Origin: Candidatus Dojkabacteria bacterium
GTDB lineage: Bacteria; Patescibacteriota; Dojkabacteria; B142; OLB20
DNA length: 64,000 nucleotides
Direction: 5' to 3'
NCBI GenBank assembly: GCA_030583785.1
Contig: CP129475.1
Coordinates: 768,845-832,844 of the forward strand
Shown here: piece after piece, positions 3,355 to 13,154 of the stretch
Position numbering within the stretch: the first letter of the stretch is position 1
How the letters are laid out: each line of letters starts with the position of its first letter
The notes under the pieces: generated by a model
The model's database searches: none
The model's input: the letters and a program-made list of their open reading frames with translations, nothing else
Told to the model about the DNA's origin: nothing
Translations under genes and position numbers: made by a program

Positions 3355-5073
3355 ATGGTTCGCCGCACTTTTAGTTCACTTAAAAACCTGCTTCTTAAAG
3401 AGCAAAATGAAATCATTTCGGCCGTAGCAGTGCTGATGGTGCTTTCACTGGTGACCAAGTTGACTGGAATGGTCTTCCTAACCTTGGTTGCCAGACAATT
3501 CGGAGCCTCCCTGGAAACAGATAAGTTTTACTTGGCTTCGGTAATCCCAGAAATGATTACAAACATCATCTTGCTGGGTGCTGTCTCTGGTGCGATTATC
3601 CCAATATTCGTAAAACTGCGTGAAGACAAAGGAGAACAAATGTTCTTGCGAAGTTTTAGTTCCACCATGAACACGGCAATGCTTTCCTTTGTGGTGCTTT
3701 CTGTTATCGCAGCTTTGTTTTCCAGAGAACTGGTTCCGTTTGCTATAAACTTATCGGGTGGTAGTCCCCTTAATGATCCTCAAGTTATAAACGATGTTGT
3801 CTGGATGATGCGTATAATGCTCATCCCTCAAATTGTTCTCGGACTAAGTGCCTTTGTTTCAACAAGTCTAAATATCTATAGCAGATTCATTATTCCGCAA
3901 CTTGCTCCGTTATTTTTTAATATTGGTAAGATCATCGGAGTCTTGCTAATTGTTCCGTTAATGGGTGGTAGCATCTGGGGATTAATCTGGGGAACTCTGC
4001 TAGGATCGCTGCTACATTTATTGATTCAGCTACCTTTGCTTTGGCATCTGCGCTTAAAGTTTAACTTACTTCTGTTTGATTTCCGTGATAAATATTTCCG
4101 TCAGGCAGTAAGGTTAGGTGCTCCTAGGGTGGCAAGTCTAAGTGTGGAGCAGTTTGCAAGCGTTATTGATAGTATCATTGCGATAGGTCTAGCAAAAGGA
4201 TCTTTGACTGTTTACCAGCTTGGAGTCAGATTGATATCAATTCCACTTAATCTCTTTGGAACAACATATTCAATTGCAGCATTCCCCACTTTGGCTAGGC
4301 TTCATGCCAATGGAAATCGTGAAGAATTTGGGATGCTCATTAATAAACTAATACAGCAAGTGTTTTTTTTAGCAATTCCGGTAACCGTTCTTCTGCTTGT
4401 ATTAAGAATACCTATTGTGCGTTTAGTTTACGGTATTTTAGGAGGTAATTTTACTTGGGAGGACACACTACAGGTTGCTTGGGTTGTTATGTTCTTTTCT
4501 CTAGGTTTGGTTTTTGAAACTCTCCGCAGTGCTTTGTTCAGGGTTTACTATGCTATGCATAATTCGATAATCCCCTTGATATCTAGTGTGATAGTTGTAG
4601 TAACCGGCATAACTACCGGAATATTATTAACAAATTACTTCAGTCACTTTACTTCTTTCTCTTTGCAAAACATAACCTGGGATATTAATTATTTCTTTAC
4701 AAAATCTGATGGACCTGCTGGAGTTGGAGGTCTGGCATTAAGTTCAAGTATCGTGTTTACGCTCGAGTTCTTTTTCTTGGTTTTTGTTTTATATAAGAAG
4801 AAGGTAATTAAACTAAGACCAATTGTTAAATCTGCGGCAAAAAAATTCTTGGCAGGTCTGATCATGTTTGTTATCTCTTACGCAATGCTCAAACTCTGGG
4901 ATGAAGTGTTAAATACTGCCAGGACTCTTCAACTAACTGTTCTGACTATCACAACAATAATCTCTTCTTTCATGCTTTATCTTTGGACAAGTTTTGTACT
5001 CGGTGTGCCAGAGGTTGAGCTCTTCATGAACTATATAGGTAGACTTCTTCGAAAGCTCAAGAAAAGCATTTGA
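3355..5073 (+). CDS. murJ: Lipid II flippase MurJ/MviN
   Basis: The N-terminus LKNLLLKEQNEIISAVAVLMVLSLVTKLTGMVFLTLVARQFGAS…DKFYLASVIPEMI is a MurJ signature, with 12+ TM helices. It ends with a TGA stop. Confidence 0.9.
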   Translation: MVRRTFSSLKNLLLKEQNEIISAVAVLMVLSLVTKLTGMVFLTLVARQFGASLETDKFYLASVIPEMITNIILLGAVSGAIIPIFVKLREDKGEQMFLRSFSSTMNTAMLSFVVLSVIAALFSRELVPFAINLSGGSPLNDPQVINDVVWMMRIMLIPQIVLGLSAFVSTSLNIYSRFIIPQLAPLFFNIGKIIGVLLIVPLMGGSIWGLIWGTLLGSLLHLLIQLPLLWHLRLKFNLLLFDFRDKYFRQAVRLGAPRVASLSVEQFASVIDSIIAIGLAKGSLTVYQLGVRLISIPLNLFGTTYSIAAFPTLARLHANGNREEFGMLINKLIQQVFFLAIPVTVLLLVLRIPIVRLVYGILGGNFTWEDTLQVAWVVMFFSLGLVFETLRSALFRVYYAMHNSIIPLISSVIVVVTGITTGILLTNYFSHFTSFSLQNITWDINYFFTKSDGPAGVGGLALSSSIVFTLEFFFLVFVLYKKKVIKLRPIVKSAAKKFLAGLIMFVISYAMLKLWDEVLNTARTLQLTVLTITTIISSFMLYLWTSFVLGVPEVELFMNYIGRLLRKLKKSI

Positions 5074-5966: not shown

Positions 5967-6880
5967 TGATCTATCTACTGCACGGAGAGAATACATTTGC
6001 CAGTAGTCAGCAGATGAATGGACTATTAAATGGTGAATACTCGCTTATTGACGGTTCTGTCCTAGACAGCATTGATCCAATATTTCAGCAGAGCGATTCA
6101 ATTTCTATGTTCGCTGGGTTAACTCAGAAAAAAACACTTGTAAAAAGGTTCTTTTCAAATCGTAAGAAAACCTTGCAAGAAAAATTGTTAACTGAACTCG
6201 AAACTAGAACCGAACTTCCCGAGATTATCTTCTGGGAATCCGGGAAGGTTGATGCCAGACTAAAGTTATACAAATACATAAGCAAGCATGGCAAAGTTGT
6301 CGAATCTACAATCTTGAATGAATCAAATGTGATCAATTGGCTAGTTAAGTATGCGGATGAAAAGGATGTGAATTTGAGTTCTAGTATTGCACGAACAATT
6401 GTAAATCATGTGGGAACAAACCAACATATATTAGCGGGTGAGGTAGATAAGCTTATTCTGCTTGCGAAATCTCACGAAAGGAATTTTTTGGTAGAGGAAG
6501 ATATCTCGATTCTAGCAGGTTCAACCCTAGAGGCAAGCAGGTGGGATCTACTCGAGGCTATAAATAGCGGAAACAAGAAGCTATCGCTACAGCTTGTTAA
6601 TCAGATTCTCCAGAACCCGAACGAATTCCAGCCACTAGTGGGACTCTTGGCTTGGCAATTCAGAACCTTATATTTGGTTTCTAGAAAAGACCTGACAACA
6701 GTAGATCTGGCAGAATTAGGAATTAAGGGATATGTCCTTCAGAAAGCAAGGTCTTACCTGCATAAAACAAATTCGCAAAAGATACTTGTCTTGCATCATA
6801 AGTTGGCCAATCTAGATTTAGCTGTGAAAGAGGGTCGGATTGATGCTAGAATAGGTATCAATATGTTGCTTACTATTTGA
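5963..6880 (+). CDS. holA: DNA polymerase III delta subunit
   Basis: MIYLLHGENTF… N-terminus and a C-terminal helical domain with …LLAWQFRTLYLV…, typical of HolA. Confidence 0.75.
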   Translation: MMIYLLHGENTFASSQQMNGLLNGEYSLIDGSVLDSIDPIFQQSDSISMFAGLTQKKTLVKRFFSNRKKTLQEKLLTELETRTELPEIIFWESGKVDARLKLYKYISKHGKVVESTILNESNVINWLVKYADEKDVNLSSSIARTIVNHVGTNQHILAGEVDKLILLAKSHERNFLVEEDISILAGSTLEASRWDLLEAINSGNKKLSLQLVNQILQNPNEFQPLVGLLAWQFRTLYLVSRKDLTTVDLAELGIKGYVLQKARSYLHKTNSQKILVLHHKLANLDLAVKEGRIDARIGINMLLTI

Positions 6881-8121: not shown

Positions 8122-8823
8122 TTAACAACTACTACCAATACATATGTCTCCGTTATGATAGAGTTGCATAAGGTTTCTTTGCCATGATGTTCCGTTGTCG
8201 CCCATCGCCTGGAAATTGACTTTACCTTGATGAACATCTATACGGAAAGTTCTTGTTCCAGAGGCTGCCTGTTCGTCTTCTAACAGTATTGAGGGAATAT
8301 CTCCTTCTTTAAGGTGAAGTCGTGCTTTGGGGATATCGTTTCCAGATGTACTTCCGACAAATTGACCGAGTCCTGTTGCTCTATTGGGGCCATAGAATAA
8401 AAAACCGTTTGTTTCTGACCTTAGGGGACCAGAATATAATTCTAAGTTTGCATAGTCGTTGCTGCCTCTAATCAATGCTCTGGTAGTTTGTCTGTTTTGA
8501 GCATCGGCAGTAGTAAGTTCTAATGTGCTTGGTCCGCCAAGTAATTCTTGTGTAAGTCCGAAAGAGCCACCAACACCATTGGTAATATTCAATAGAGTTT
8601 CTGGGGTTGCTGTGCCAACGCCGACTTTGCCACCACTATAATGGATACCTGTCAGATTGGTTTGCCAACCAGTTGGTTCGTTAGCGAAAGCAGGATTGAA
8701 AACATACGCAAGTGCCAATATAACAGATGCAGACATGGCAAGTCGAAGCATTTTTGCTAGGTGCATATTAAGATAGATAATAAGTAATGTTGTAATTATC
8801 AAAGTTGGAAATAAAAATATCAT
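8122..8823 (-). CDS. Secreted protein with a tail-fibre-like G-V-G-I/V-G-T-x-x-P motif. An alternative start at the second Met (8766) gives a cleaner signal peptide.
   Basis: Signal peptide MHLAKMLRLAMSASVILALAYVFNPAFA. GKVGVGTATPETLLNI matches the motif common in phage tail-fibre and adhesin C-terminal regions. Confidence 0.5.
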   Translation of the reverse strand: MIFLFPTLIITTLLIIYLNMHLAKMLRLAMSASVILALAYVFNPAFANEPTGWQTNLTGIHYSGGKVGVGTATPETLLNITNGVGGSFGLTQELLGGPSTLELTTADAQNRQTTRALIRGSNDYANLELYSGPLRSETNGFLFYGPNRATGLGQFVGSTSGNDIPKARLHLKEGDIPSILLEDEQAASGTRTFRIDVHQGKVNFQAMGDNGTSWQRNLMQLYHNGDICIGSSC

Positions 8824-8973
8824 TAATTTTTTTACTTTCTAGAAAGCTCCAAAGTTAATAAAAAGTTAGATTGACAGCGATAAACTACATCTGTTATTTT
8901 GAGTAAATACTTAGTTCATTTTCACTGCCGATCTACTCGAAATAGCATTATCTTAGCTATTAATATTTAGACT

Positions 8974-9999
8974 ATGGCCAAAGACAAAACAGAAAAAGCA
9001 GTTGTACAAGAGACCGACGGCAAGAAAAAGGCTCTGACAATGGCAGTCGAGCAAATTGAAAAACAGTTCGGCAAAGGCTCAATCATGCGCTTGGGCGAAA
9101 ATGTAAAAAGAACAGATGTAGATGCAATCTCTACAGGTGCTCTATCCTTAGATATTGCATTAGGAGTGGGTGGTGTTCCCAAGGGCAGAATTATTGAGAT
9201 ATACGGACCAGAATCGTCCGGTAAAACAACGCTCGCCCTTCATATTATTGCCGAAGCCCAAGCTCAAGGCGGGGTTGCAGCTTTTATTGATGCCGAACAT
9301 GCACTCGATCCGCTCTATGCTCAACATATCGGAATTAATCTTGACGACCTTCTGATTTCCCAGCCAGACTACGGAGAACAAGCTCTAGAGATACTCGAAA
9401 CTCTGATCCGTTCTGGTGCAGTTGATGTCGTCGTTGTTGACTCTGTTGCTGCCCTGACTCCTAGAGCAGAAATAGAAGGTGATATGGGGGATTCCCATAT
9501 GGGTCTTCAAGCAAGGCTTATGAGTCAGGCACTTAGAAAAATCACTGCTGTTGCTGCAAAAATGGGGACAACAATAATCTTTATAAATCAGTTGCGTATG
9601 AAAATCGGTGTTATGTTCGGAAACCCCGAAACTACAACTGGTGGTAATGCCTTAAAATTCTATTCTTCTGTCAGAATGGAAATTCGAAAAAAAGAGAAGA
9701 TTGGAACTCTAGAAAATGTTGAAGGGCATAAAGTGAAAGTTAAAGTTGTAAAAAATAAAGTGGCGCCACCATTTAAAGAGGCAACCTTTGATATTATATA
9801 TCCAAACGGCATAGATAAACTGAGCTCTTTGCTCGATGCAGCACTTATGTTTAAGATTATCGAAAAAGCCGGATCTTGGTTCAAGATGGGTAATAATCAG
9901 CTCGGACAAGGTGGAGAAGCCGTTAAAGAACTATTAAGAACAGATAAGAATCTGCGCAAAGAAGTATATGCAGCTGTTAAAAAGGCTGCCGCAGTTTAA
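8974..9999 (+). CDS. recA: Recombinase RecA
   Basis: [24 protein letters not shown]…, Walker [10 protein letters not shown], and the conserved RecA L1/L2 regions. Confidence 0.95.
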
Positions 10000-10026
10000 G
10001 AAATTCTATTTAATTTTTAAATTCGA

Positions 10027-10626
10027 ATGGCAATCTCATCAGCTACAAAGAGTTTAAACTACTTGTTTATATCAAAGGTTAGAATTAAATGTGTTAAATA
10101 TTTTCTGTTTAACCCAGATGTCCCCATTCATCTCCGTGGTGCCGTTCGAGACTTTAAAGAAGAGATAAATGCAGTAAGAAGAGAGCTCACCCGACTGGAA
10201 GAAATCAAGCTAATAAAAAGCGAAAGCAGAGGCAATCGTCGTTACTTTGTTCTCAACACAGAATACGAATTTCTTCCAGAGTTAAAGGGAATGTTCCATA
10301 AAACCTTTGGTCTTGGGGGAGCCCTCCGCAGTAATGCAGACAAGCTTGGAGAACTTCAATATGCCATACTCACAGATGCTTTTGTTAATGGAAACAAGCT
10401 CGGCTCACAAGATGTCGACCTTGTAATAATTGGCAATATTGATCTTCAAACACTTGCAGATATTATTTCCGATGCTGAAAAGAAACTTGGTAGAGAAATA
10501 AATTATACAGTTCTTAAAGGAAGTGAATTCATTCTTAGAAAAAAGAGAAGAGACGCCTTTGTTACAGAACTGCTCATGAGAGAAAAGATAGTAGTTTTTG
10601 GAAACCCGTCCGATTTGATTCATTAA
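10027..10626 (+). CDS. Winged-HTH domain fused to a nucleotidyltransferase-like domain
   Basis: The N-terminal wHTH (…VRIKCVKYFLFNPDVPIHLRGAVRDF…GNRRYFVLN) is followed by …LGSQDVDLVIIGN…, a DxD-containing pol-beta NTase-like segment with atypical spacing. Confidence 0.4.
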   Translation: MAISSATKSLNYLFISKVRIKCVKYFLFNPDVPIHLRGAVRDFKEEINAVRRELTRLEEIKLIKSESRGNRRYFVLNTEYEFLPELKGMFHKTFGLGGALRSNADKLGELQYAILTDAFVNGNKLGSQDVDLVIIGNIDLQTLADIISDAEKKLGREINYTVLKGSEFILRKKRRDAFVTELLMREKIVVFGNPSDLIH

Positions 10627-10635
10627 TAGCAAGAA

Positions 10636-11466
10636 TTGCAGAATCCTTTACAACCGCTCAGACAAAAATCATCGAGAAGCCGTTTTCAGGTTTGGTTTAA
10701 ACAGGCAAGATTTGATCTGCAGGCAGCTCATATGAGTTTCGACCACGGTTATTACGAGTGGGCAGTGTATCAGGCAGAACAATCTGTAGAGAAGGCGATA
10801 AAAGCTGTACTGGTTCATGCTGGATGGAAGCCACCAAGAGTTCATAAACTGCAAGTATTAATGGGACTTGCAAACGAAGCTAACGACGAATTTAAAAATA
10901 CCAAGTTCTCTTTTCGACATCTTGAATCGTTCACATTTATATCTAGGTATCCTTTTCTGCTTCCTAATCGCAACGATACACCGCACGAAATAATTAAAAA
11001 AGCAGATGCAAAAAAGGCTCTAGGGCAAGCACAGGAGTTTGTCGATAAAATCGCTACCATCCTGAAGCACGATGTTGTCCTTCCGCAAAAGCCACTACAT
11101 CCGATGAGTGAAATGTACCTTAAAGACAGAGTCTCAGAGAGAATTGATAAAATAAAAGAAGAGCTTGTCAGAGAATTTAATCCAGAAGCGGTTATTCTTT
11201 TTGGTAGTTTTGCAAAAAACCTAGAACCAGCAGAGCCTTCTACTATTGATATCCTCGTTGTCGCAGATTGCGAAGAGAGCTTCGTCGATAGAATTGTTAG
11301 AGCAAGAAAAGCAACTAAGGGTGGGCTACCTGTTGTTGAACCTCTGGTCTATACCAAAGAAGAATTCGAAACAATGCTCAGTGGTGCAGAAGACAGTTTC
11401 ATAGAGTCAGCGTTGCAAGAAGGTAAAGTACTATACGAAAAAACACCTGGAGCAATTACTATTTGA
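10636..11466 (+). CDS. HEPN domain (N-terminal) fused to a minimal nucleotidyltransferase (MNT) domain (C-terminal)
   Basis: The HEPN signature FKQARFDLQAAHMSFDHGYYEWAVYQAEQSVEKAIKAVLV…RVHKL carries the R-x4-6-H-like motif. The C-terminal GSFAKNLEPAEPSTIDILVV matches the GSxAxG…SDIDLLV MNT motif but has Thr in place of the first Asp. Confidence 0.6.
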   Translation: MQNPLQPLRQKSSRSRFQVWFKQARFDLQAAHMSFDHGYYEWAVYQAEQSVEKAIKAVLVHAGWKPPRVHKLQVLMGLANEANDEFKNTKFSFRHLESFTFISRYPFLLPNRNDTPHEIIKKADAKKALGQAQEFVDKIATILKHDVVLPQKPLHPMSEMYLKDRVSERIDKIKEELVREFNPEAVILFGSFAKNLEPAEPSTIDILVVADCEESFVDRIVRARKATKGGLPVVEPLVYTKEEFETMLSGAEDSFIESALQEGKVLYEKTPGAITI

Positions 11467-12136
11467 TATCCACTGAGGCAAGAATCTTGGCAATAACATC
11501 TCCAAAGCTTAAAGAGGGATTGTCTCCATCTACGGTTGAGTTGGTAAATAAAAAGCCAATTTCAGTTTCTTTGGCTTTAACAACATATAATTCGGCCCCT
11601 TTAAAAGTATCTTCATTCTTGTAAAGATTAGTACTCAGTTTATCAACATTGATTTCTGCTGCAAGCTTCCAATCCTTGGAGTTTACCGTGGCTTGTTCTT
11701 TTGATTCTGCGTTAAAAAGTGTGAATGTATAGTATGTTTTGTCAGTTCCATCGTTAAAATTGTAGCTCACATACGAATTGCTTAATCTATTTGACTCTGG
11801 TATTTCTTGTGAATTCTTTACGAAGCCTGCAGGAAGACGAAAACTTAATCCTGTTTGCTCAAAGCTGACAATCAATTGGTTCCCGGCCTGTTTATTTATG
11901 GTTTCTGCCTCTTCGTAGTCTTTTATTGGCGTAAGATCACCAGTAAGTATGTAGTTATTGACTTGATGCAACTGGTTACCTAGGCTTGCCTGAGCTAATG
12001 TAAGATCTTGCACCTGTTTTTGAAGTTGATAGTTTGACCATGCAAGACCGATTAAAACAAACAGAAGTATGACAGTCAAAGGAAATAAAACTCCCGGATA
12101 GGTTTTTGGAGCAGGCATTGCTATGGTGTCAGACAT
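11459..12136 (-). CDS. Hypothetical membrane-anchored protein
   Basis: N-terminal TM segment GVLFPLTVILLFVLIGLAW, with no other recognisable motif. Its 3' end overlaps the convergent upstream gene by 8 nt. Confidence 0.4.
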   Translation of the reverse strand: MSDTIAMPAPKTYPGVLFPLTVILLFVLIGLAWSNYQLQKQVQDLTLAQASLGNQLHQVNNYILTGDLTPIKDYEEAETINKQAGNQLIVSFEQTGLSFRLPAGFVKNSQEIPESNRLSNSYVSYNFNDGTDKTYYTFTLFNAESKEQATVNSKDWKLAAEINVDKLSTNLYKNEDTFKGAELYVVKAKETEIGFLFTNSTVDGDNPSLSFGDVIAKILASVDIK

Positions 12137-12140
12137 TCTA

Positions 12141-13154
12141 CTATTTTTCTGACAATTTAACTTTCTGAAGTTCTGATATTTTAGAGCTTCCTACAGAAAA
12201 CATAGCAATTCTAAATTCATTCTGCAACTTTTCTAATACAGATACACAGGCTTCGGTGCTTTCTAAAGCAGGAGCGAGCAGGGGCTTTGCTGCCGTTGCT
12301 AGTTTGGCTCCAAGCGCGACTGCCTTGGCTATATGAATACCATTTCGTATTCCGCCACCGGCAATAAGATTCAAACCTTTTATACTCCTATTAATCATTA
12401 GTGCTTCTGCGGTAGGTATCCCTTCTGCCTTGAAAAGATCTCCAAGGTCGTCTGTTCTTCTGTATCCTTCAACCCAAGACCATGAAGTTCCGCCCGTTCC
12501 AGAAACATCAATCCATTTAACACCTATCTCGGCAAGTCTTCGAGCTGTTTCATGATCGATTCCTGTTCCGACCTCTTTTATAACGATTGGTTTATGGACT
12601 TTAGGAATGATTTTTTCAAGCTTTGGAATTAGTTCCTTGAAATTCGTATCTCCTTCTGGTTGAACAGCTTCCTGAAGCGGATTAACATGAAGAAATATTC
12701 CATCAGCATTGACCGAGTCAATGATTCTGTTGATCTCATCTGCTCCATATCCGTAGTTAATCTGCACCAGCCCCATGTTGGCCAATAAAGGTACGCTGGG
12801 GCAGTATTTTTTGACATCAAAACTTTTGACTGATTCTGGTTTTCTAAGAATAACTCTCATGGAACCAAGGCCAAGAGCAACGCCCACCTCTTCTGCCGCT
12901 TCTGCAAGACGGCTATTGATTGAGTAACCTTTTTCTGGACCTCCCGTCATCGAAGAAATTATGAAGGGGAAAGATAGTTTGGCTCCAAGAAATGAAGCCG
13001 TTGTATCAATATCCTGCATATCGATTTCAGGTAAAGCCTTAAAAGGCAATCTATATTTATCAAACGATGACGGCAAAGGCTCAACATTTTTTTTGAGTAC
13101 AATGTTGATATGGTCTAGTTTTCGCTCATTTATGTTGTCGTCAAATTCTGCCAT
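12141..13154 (-). CDS. fni: Isopentenyl-diphosphate delta-isomerase, type 2 (FMN-dependent)
   Basis: ERKLDHINI…, FIISSMTGG, and the glycine-rich GTGGTSW / AGGGIRNG motifs of the IDI-2 TIM barrel. Confidence 0.85.
   Translation of the reverse strand: MAEFDDNINERKLDHINIVLKKNVEPLPSSFDKYRLPFKALPEIDMQDIDTTASFLGAKLSFPFIISSMTGGPEKGYSINSRLAEAAEEVGVALGLGSMRVILRKPESVKSFDVKKYCPSVPLLANMGLVQINYGYGADEINRIIDSVNADGIFLHVNPLQEAVQPEGDTNFKELIPKLEKIIPKVHKPIVIKEVGTGIDHETARRLAEIGVKWIDVSGTGGTSWSWVEGYRRTDDLGDLFKAEGIPTAEALMINRSIKGLNLIAGGGIRNGIHIAKAVALGAKLATAAKPLLAPALESTEACVSVLEKLQNEFRIAMFSVGSSKISELQKVKLSEK

Follow-up and report, generated by a model that had tools for sequence, protein, structure and literature searches.

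A winged-helix gene and a HEPN-MNT fusion gene behind recA in Candidatus Dojkabacteria: possible domesticated descendants of toxin-antitoxin-type modules

Two genes downstream of recA

In a stretch of 64,000 nucleotides of a Candidatus Dojkabacteria genome (assembly GCA_030583785.1, contig CP129475.1, positions 768,845 to 832,844 of the forward strand; hereafter the window, whose own coordinates are used below), recA is followed on the + strand by two genes that we call P1 and P2. P1 (10027..10626) encodes 199 aa, with a winged helix-turn-helix (wHTH) of the ArsR/SmtB type (around residues 13-80) and a degenerate C-terminal domain of nucleotidyltransferase (NTase) fold (around residues 104-190), and falls in the PADLOC family PDC-M05A. 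P2 (10636..11466, TTG start) encodes 276 aa, with a HEPN domain followed by a minimal nucleotidyltransferase (MNT) domain in a single chain. Both open reading frames (ORFs) had been called in a first-pass annotation, and both are present. That annotation proposed a toxin-antitoxin (TA) or defence module with a built-in regulator, or else a decayed one. The reading that we favour, with a confidence somewhat better than even, is that P1 and P2 are vertically inherited, domesticated descendants of MNT/HEPN-type modules, and that they are neither an addiction or defence cassette nor an obligate pair. Ancestry in MNT/HEPN TA modules, the part of the earlier proposal that is kept here, is plausible.

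Genomic contexts of P1 and P2

One genome per GTDB species was scanned for P2, which gave 51 loci, including three complete or chromosome-level records, and contexts were mapped by tblastn with the neighbours of the window and with those of locus L029. At 28 of the 51 loci the order was that of the window, namely a gene like the one at 6877, then recA, P1 and P2, usually with rny convergent downstream. At 21 others P2 was found in the order ftsZ-sortase (reverse)-rpoD-P2, again with rny convergent downstream, and neither recA nor P1 was present within 6 kb. Two loci were too short to be assigned. Overall, rny lay within the fetched flank (6 kb) at 39 of the 51 loci. The pair that the first-pass annotation had placed at the recA locus is thus found there in the first set of genomes, and not in the second, where P2 stands beside rpoD. 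The position of P1 was checked in one genome of the rpoD-P2 context: on chromosome OY969472.1, recA and, directly behind it, P1 lie at about 444 kb, and P2 is found beside rpoD and rny at about 589 kb, some 145 kb away.

Among P1-centred metagenome loci whose upstream side was covered, recA was directly upstream in 10 of 10 when P1 was at least 49% identical to the window protein (Dojkabacteria-type loci), as it also was in L052 and L053. Where the downstream side of Dojkabacteria-type loci was covered, P2 followed in 7 and was absent in 6. When P1 was 40-44% identical (Curtissbacteria-type), recA was nearby in none of the 48 loci with upstream coverage. The context of this second type, DUF4446-DUF3048-P1-SecD/SecF, was found in 21 of 21 metagenome loci with full flanks, with no HEPN neighbour. 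These loci are L071 and 20 others (a subset of L078-L133), with P1 at about 4001-4580.

Two ideas were dropped. A recA-P1 link throughout the candidate phyla radiation (CPR) was rejected, being seen only with P1 relatives of at least 49% identity. The 122-aa ORF that follows P1 in L052 was considered as a stand-alone HEPN, which would have made a classic MNT-HEPN pair, and was rejected for want of any HEPN or PADLOC match.

Judging from gene order, we conclude that the stable links are recA-P1 (in Dojkabacteria only) and P2-rny, that P1-P2 adjacency belongs to one sub-lineage, and that P1 and P2 are no obligate pair.

Distribution and descent

Named homologues of P1 and P2 belong to Candidatus Dojkabacteria / candidate division WS6 (CPR). 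For P2, a word-indexed search returned 112 full-length homologues, 40-97% identical and nearly all of 250-285 aa. An exhaustive HMMER search of 1.84 billion cluster representatives with the P2 family profile gave 10,800 matches at E <= 1e-3 and 14 at E <= 1e-30; because just 14 representatives passed the stricter threshold, the orthologous family is narrow and lineage-specific. The identity of P2 to the window protein follows that of RNase Y (Rny) across loci (Pearson 0.91, Spearman 0.75, n=32), as vertical descent would predict. No significant correlation was found between the identities of P1 and P2. The first-pass annotation had regarded universal conservation with a housekeeping role as incompatible with its proposal, and this is largely the picture obtained, the genes being conserved, syntenic and vertically inherited in Dojkabacteria.

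Loci L007-L009, L012-L014, L019, L021, L023, L027, L028, L031, L032, L038-L040, L043 and L049 come from records titled 'uncultured Candidatus Saccharibacteria bacterium'. These assemblies, which are GTDB representatives, have Dojkabacteria-type synteny and a RecA 67-79% identical to that of the window; the label is probably generic or a submitter's mistake.

Domains and conserved residues of P2

Pfam HEPN (PF05168, of the 'HEPN-T' type) matches P2 at residues 18-138 (10687..11049, + strand; E 5.7e-24, 85 bits for a cut-off of 22), and residues 170-269 (11143..11442, + strand) match Polbeta (32.3 bits, cut-off 26.9) and NTP_transf_2 (31.8 bits, cut-off 21). The AlphaFold2 (AF2) model of P2 has a pLDDT of 90.4 and a pTM of 0.85. 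When compared to the PDB with Foldseek, the N-terminal half matched TT1696, ST0689, the sacsin HEPN, TM0613 and AF0298, with TM-scores, normalised to target length, of 0.7-0.8 for TT1696, the sacsin HEPN and ST0689; a PDB sequence search with P2 also returned TM0613, ST0689 and TT1696. The C-terminal half matched 2rff, HI0073 and MntA, which are minimal NTases. None of the PDB chains spanned both halves. Pfam matches above cut-off, the model and Foldseek therefore agree with the HEPN-then-MNT chain seen at first pass.

The NTase motif of P2 reads G190-S191 (11203-11208) followed by S202-T203-I204-D205 (T203 to D205 at 11242-11250), with E235 as the third carboxylate. Thr203 is encoded by ACT at 11242-11244, which confirms the earlier observation that the first catalytic Asp is replaced by Thr. 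On the HEPN side, the residues of interest are H70 (10843-10845), R104-Y105 (10945-10950) and H117 (10984-10986). In a 105-sequence alignment, 24 columns were invariant: Q23, E41, W42, Q46, Q49, E52, K53, K56, P67, H70, L75, N80, R104, Y105, P106, P116 and H117 on the HEPN side, and G190, T203, F216, R219, Y239, T240 and E243 on the C-terminal side. Residues were also counted directly at 58-60 genomic loci. There, H70, R104, Y105, H117, G190 and D205 did not vary. Thr occupied position 203 in 55 of 58 loci, the other 3 having Glu, and position 235 was Glu in 54 loci, Asn in 2 and Asp in 1. At position 191, the 'Ser' of the G-S motif, 34 of 58 loci had Ser; the other 24 had Arg (15), Gly (7), Thr (1) or Ala (1). 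The HEPN domain is under tighter constraint than the NTase domain. The Arg of 'RNDTPH' in the window protein is not conserved among relatives.

With Thr203 shared by 55 of 58 orthologues, this residue is a trait of the family and no sign of decay in this genome. In a competent NTase one expects G-S, [DE]x[DE] and a further carboxylate, to which G-[S/R/G/T/A], T-x-D and E correspond in P2. Most members of the family keep two of the three carboxylates, in varying combinations, which may be compensatory. Likewise, the Rx4-6H RNase motif was not found in P2, where YPFLLP comes after R104 and the next His, H117, is 13 residues on. H70 corresponds to an alternative conserved His of some HEPN-T proteins (PMC3710099).

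Decay into functionless remnants of a dead TA module, the second proposal of the first-pass annotation, would fit the non-canonical state of both NTase centres. It is at odds with intact ORFs in more than 100 homologues of 40-97% identity, with the 24 invariant columns of P2 and the 23 of P1, with the conservation of the substitutions themselves, and with confident AF2 models for both proteins. These conservation data effectively refute it, and it is the only rival explanation that we regard as effectively excluded.

Under the reading of domesticated genes, P2 would be a HEPN:MNT unit complete in itself, made as one chain in most species and encoded by two overlapping genes in one clade. Because the tightest constraint is found there, we propose that the HEPN domain (H70, R104, Y105, H117) provides the working surface, in the shape of a cleft that would form on dimerisation, bind RNA or a nucleotide and possibly cut RNA. 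For the MNT domain, given Thr at the first carboxylate position and the freely varying 'Ser', we propose the role of an intramolecular nucleotide-binding regulator or lid, and not that of an efficient AMP-transferase.

Alternatively, P2 may be an active nucleotidyltransferase of the KNTase kind with a permuted domain order, in which HEPN would bind the substrate and the MNT domain would transfer a nucleotide by means of Thr203, Asp205, Glu235 and a single metal ion, the acceptor being a small molecule, a protein or an RNA end. KNTase-type enzymes have a substrate-binding domain to which HEPN is related in structure (PMC3710099), and both P2 and these enzymes combine an NTase fold and a HEPN-clan helical domain in one polypeptide. 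Conserved positions include G190, D205 and E235, two carboxylates out of three are kept (T/D/E in most loci, E/D/N in L047 and L048), and the high pTM of the P2 model implies a fixed arrangement of the two domains. However, the domain order is opposite to that of KNTase-type enzymes and the triad is incomplete, 55 of 58 loci having no first carboxylate. In the 24 loci mentioned above, R, G, T or A stands in for the serine with which NTP phosphates are positioned, and the HEPN side is the more constrained one. Matches to AAD(9) and ANT(4'') were weak in sequence and fold (E around 0.07-0.3), and Foldseek against the PDB returned no enzyme with HEPN first. We consider this alternative possible but rather unlikely.

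The P1 family

P1 has an ArsR-type wHTH fold, and its AF2 model is confident. In an hhalign comparison, residues 104-190 aligned with the P2 MNT domain (E 1.6e-4, probability 50%); P1 stays below the Pfam level for NTP_transf_2 (12.5 bits, cut-off 21). Near-invariant stretches of the winged helix are ISKVRIK, HLRGAVRE..EEINAVRREL and GNRKY. There are 23 invariant columns in P1. The tail keeps only D131, Y160, V162, K172, R174 and D176. Its NTase centre lacks G-S and varies at the first Asp, and Asn or His takes the place of the third carboxylate. The first-pass annotation was right to assign a wHTH and an NTase-like tail to P1, but the 'GS' of the string that it quoted, 'GSQDVDLVIIG', does not correspond to the G-S motif of NTases, with which T116-D117 aligns instead. 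Of the 'DVD' in that string, the family conserves D131, the latter Asp, and not the former. Relatives of the Curtissbacteria type retain SGSF.RG and [DE]-V-D-L, with Asn at the third site. A PDB sequence search with P1 returned nothing meaningful.

With the window protein as query, 1,910 homologues of P1 were matched, and a metagenome relative 44% identical to P1 gave 5,218 further matches, named Candidatus Curtissbacteria or Patescibacteria group. From these searches, P1 is a member of a large and highly conserved family of Patescibacteria. The few members with a name from their source are called 'hypothetical protein' or regulators of the 'ArsR family' or 'winged helix-turn-helix' kind.

We propose that P1 is a DNA-binding regulator acting through its ArsR-like winged helix. 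The C-terminal NTase fold, with its catalytic set lost, would most likely serve dimerisation and/or the sensing of a ligand (a nucleotide). In Dojkabacteria, P1 is fixed directly behind recA and probably co-transcribed with it.

Relation to toxin-antitoxin and defence systems

PDC-M05, a candidate defence system enriched in archaea, consists of an 'A' subunit, in which an ArsR-like HTH is joined to a KNTase-like NTase, and a HEPN protein as 'B' subunit; its antiviral role is not yet confirmed. The window resembles it in that P1 matches PDC-M05A over its full length and is followed by a HEPN-containing gene. It differs in that no PDC-M05B match was obtained, be it with full P2 (E <= 1), with its HEPN half or with the split HEPN ORF described below (E <= 10 for both), in that the NTase centre of P1 is degenerate, and in that P1 also occurs without a HEPN neighbour, both at Dojkabacteria loci and in Curtissbacteria-type genomes.

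Fusion of HEPN-T and MNT has already been listed as an architecture, whose HEPN typically lacks the RNase residues and was read as a sign of TA domestication (Anantharaman et al. 2013, PMC3710099). P2 shares with the HEPN-T/MNT group (TT1696 1ufb, ST0689 1wol, TM0613 1o3u, AF0298 2hsb) the '[ST]RYP' motif, the 'EKALKA' helix, H70 and the association with MNT. In contrast to that group, P2 has HEPN first, most fused relatives found being MNT-first, its MNT is T-x-D, the Asp or His that comes after RYP in the relatives is Phe107, and the gene is a syntenic, lineage-wide one of CPR-class genomes rather than a patchy TA of thermophiles and archaea. With type VII HepT/MntA and FhepTA, P2 has in common the HEPN+MNT pairing, the existence of fused and split orthologues, and a Tyr beside a conserved Arg (R104-Y105); by type VII logic, Y105 would be the candidate AMPylation site. 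It departs from HepT/MntA, a two-gene operon with MNT 5' and a patchy, mobile distribution, in that HEPN is 5' in both the fused and the split forms, and in being syntenic, co-diverging with rny and not found on viral contigs. P2 did not reach the NCBIfam MntA equivalog NF047752 (18.3 bits, cut-off 60). FhepTA, found on mobile elements of Shewanella (prophages and genomic islands), has MNT then HEPN, an active GS...DxD MNT and an R-phi-xxxH HEPN (Yao et al. 2026, PMC13000451); P2 has the reverse order, no R-phi-xxxH, and a chromosomal core context. In a scan of IMG/VR, relatives of P1 were absent, and the sole P2-related match lay on a high-GC viral contig, in an unrelated pair of separate genes, MNT then HEPN, of the canonical type.

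Several points weigh against the reading of domesticated, separable genes. The match of P1 to the PADLOC PDC-M05A profile PDLC04368 is strong (E 3.6e-32, residues 8-197 of 199), and a PDC-M05 system protected E. coli according to one preprint. Neighbouring P1 and P2 genes are closely spaced and overlap by 1 or 4 nt at many loci, as would be expected of a functional pair. The invariant R104, H70 and H117 could form an active RNase site, hence be toxic, and Thr with two carboxylates might still support catalysis. The 51 P2 loci are a count of loci recovered and not a share of all Dojkabacteria genomes. As to P1, its identity was not significantly correlated with that of RecA (Spearman 0.27, p = 0.17), so that its vertical descent is drawn from synteny alone. 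Structure searches with P1 returned winged-helix matches throughout both lists, so that the NTase fold of its tail is predicted from sequence. 'Domesticated', finally, describes what the evolutionary pattern suggests, and nothing else.

The PDC-M05A match, the protection reported for PDC-M05, the short overlaps and the invariant R104, H70 and H117 would suit an active TA or abortive-infection module of the PDC-M05 or type VII kind, in which P1 would be antitoxin and autorepressor, and P2 a HEPN RNase toxin with a cis-acting MNT antitoxin, as in FhepTA; TA proteins in which MNT and HEPN are fused are known, and Y105 is invariant like the three residues just named. Such a module is hard to reconcile with vertical, syntenic genes, with the separation of P1 from P2 at 21 of 51 loci (a distance of about 145 kb on the chromosome described above), and with the viral contigs, from which the family is absent. 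P2 has no Rx4-6H, its HEPN half has no PDC-M05B match at E <= 10, and its score against MntA is far below the cut-off; P1 does not have the residues for AMPylation, and the MNT of P2 does not have the first carboxylate. We consider it improbable, and the TA or defence module with a built-in regulator proposed at first pass is abandoned on the same grounds of synteny, vertical inheritance and separability.

Returning to domestication, the folds, motifs, conservation and synteny, the separability of P1 and P2 and their absence from viral contigs are observed, and from them we infer DNA binding by P1, a lost or weakened transferase activity, a regulatory role for the MNT of P2 and any RNA target. 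Building blocks of the TA type (HEPN, MNT, HTH-NTase) would here have been fixed as single-copy vertical genes in very small genomes of the CPR class. A practical consequence is that PADLOC PDC-M05A profiles and domain-based TA calls will mislabel genes of the P1 and P2 type in Patescibacteria. P1 is in addition a very widespread candidate regulator of the CPR, and its linkage to recA, together with the promoter element described below, makes the regulatory hypothesis directly testable. The finding of P1 and P2 alone reveals no new mechanism. We found no literature on Dojkabacteria together with HEPN, or on Patescibacteria together with recA, winged helix and NTase.

The recA promoter and the transcription unit

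The recA gene (8974..9999, + strand; Pfam RecA E 1e-138, RecA_C E 3e-14) is probably the first gene of an operon. It is separated from P1 by 27 nt, and P1 from P2 by 9 nt. Within 8700-12300, the best promoter match is the site upstream of recA at 8871-8900 (10 of 12 positions, with TG), and no terminator-like site was found, hence none between recA and the end of P2. On this basis, recA, P1 and P2 are probably a single transcription unit. GC content is flat across the region (0.35-0.42).

The promoter-like site as a whole (8871..8907, + strand) comprises a -35 box TTGACA (8871-8876), an extended -10 ending at 8900 and TTGAGTAAA at 8899-8907. In an alignment of 11 species, made of window positions 8871-8925 and the sequences upstream of recA in L002, L003, L005-L007, L009, L010 and L012-L014, TTGACA, TG.TA..TT and TTGAGTAAA were invariant and the flanks had diverged. 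TTGAGTAAA overlaps the -10/+1 region of recA, and TTACTTCAAT follows it in many loci, giving an imperfect dyad. This dyad is a candidate operator of the recA-P1-P2 unit, for P1 as a repressor or for a LexA-like factor. It was not seen in the form TTGAGTAAA 5' of recA in L052. The count of TTGAGTAAA in the window was rejected as evidence for a regulon, since one copy was found for 1.27 expected, which is not significant. As the copy number in the window does not exceed chance, only the invariance of TTGAGTAAA across species is counted.

These data bear on a further alternative, that P1 is an accessory factor specific to RecA, either a RecX replacement or a LexA-like SOS repressor, and P2 a mere neighbour. 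The presence of recA directly 5' of P1 in 28 P2-centred loci, in L052 and L053 and in all 10 P1-centred Dojkabacteria-type loci speaks for it, as do the short gaps without terminator and the conserved dyad-like element over the recA -10/+1. But Curtissbacteria-type orthologues never adjoin recA (0 of 48) and lie by SecDF instead, so that the core function of the P1 family would not be specific to recA, and TTGAGTAAA is at chance level in the window and missing in that form in L052. Profile searches detected no LexA/S24 domain in P1. The position of the genes where recX would be expected, offered as a functional clue at first pass, leads nowhere either: no RecX family is among the Pfam matches of P1 or P2 at E <= 1. 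We regard this explanation as very doubtful.

A more elaborate scenario can be drawn, to which we give little credence. P1 would represent a Patescibacteria-wide and so far uncharacterised class of transcription factors, in which an ArsR-like wHTH is joined to a dead NTase that senses nucleotides, and would have entered the recA operon of Dojkabacteria as an SOS-like regulator for DNA damage, acting at the TTGAGTAAA dyad over the recA -10/+1. P2, domesticated, would be a HEPN RNase that its pseudo-NTase domain gates and that takes part in RNA turnover beside RNase Y.

In the window, P1 and P2 are in the same frame, and at 10621-10640 only TAA-TAG-CAA-GAA stands before the TTG start of P2. Unlike this in-frame spacing, the 4-nt overlaps seen at many related loci put the two genes in different frames.

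Fused, split and related forms of P2

In one clade (L043-L049, and metagenome loci L062, L063 and L088), the P2 orthologue is split at the same locus into two overlapping ORFs in different frames, a 5' HEPN of 142-153 aa and a 3' MNT of 117 aa, with an overlap of about 60-75 nt (at about 5980-6722 in L043-L049). Its recurrence in several independent assemblies makes a sequencing error unlikely, and the stand-alone representatives P0239 and P0244 match the split forms. In L047, L048 and L049, Glu occupies the first carboxylate position of the separate MNTs, and the third is Asn (L047, L048) or Asp (L049); the MNT ORF of L047 is at 6369-6722.

The reversed domain order was pointed out at first pass as unusual. 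This holds insofar as MNT-then-HEPN forms with a canonical S-D-x-D (e.g. P0243, P0246) make up most of the fused relatives among the best 150 representatives. It does not hold strictly, as P0254 (245 aa) is HEPN-then-MNT with a canonical S-D-I-D-L-L, and its alignment to P2 is colinear over 250 aa (28% identity, E 4e-20). More distant relatives (P0264, P0332, P0370, P0323) include tandem MNT-MNT proteins and one tandem HEPN-HEPN, and domain shuffling in the MNT/HEPN module family goes beyond two domain orders. In P0240 (391 aa), an N-terminal region that looks PNPase/RNase PH-like by eye only is joined to a P2-type MNT (GTMDILIIA...IIEPLVYTP); it may be a true fusion, or a frameshift or assembly chimera.

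Neighbouring ORFs

No paralogue of P1 or P2 was found within the 64-kb window. Upstream of recA, a 233-aa ORF on the - strand (8122-8823) has no domain match and no counterpart at any related locus. A 225-aa ORF, also on the - strand (11459-12136), shares 8 nt with the 3' end of P2. It has no domain match, and its only recognisable homologue is in L001 (36% identity).

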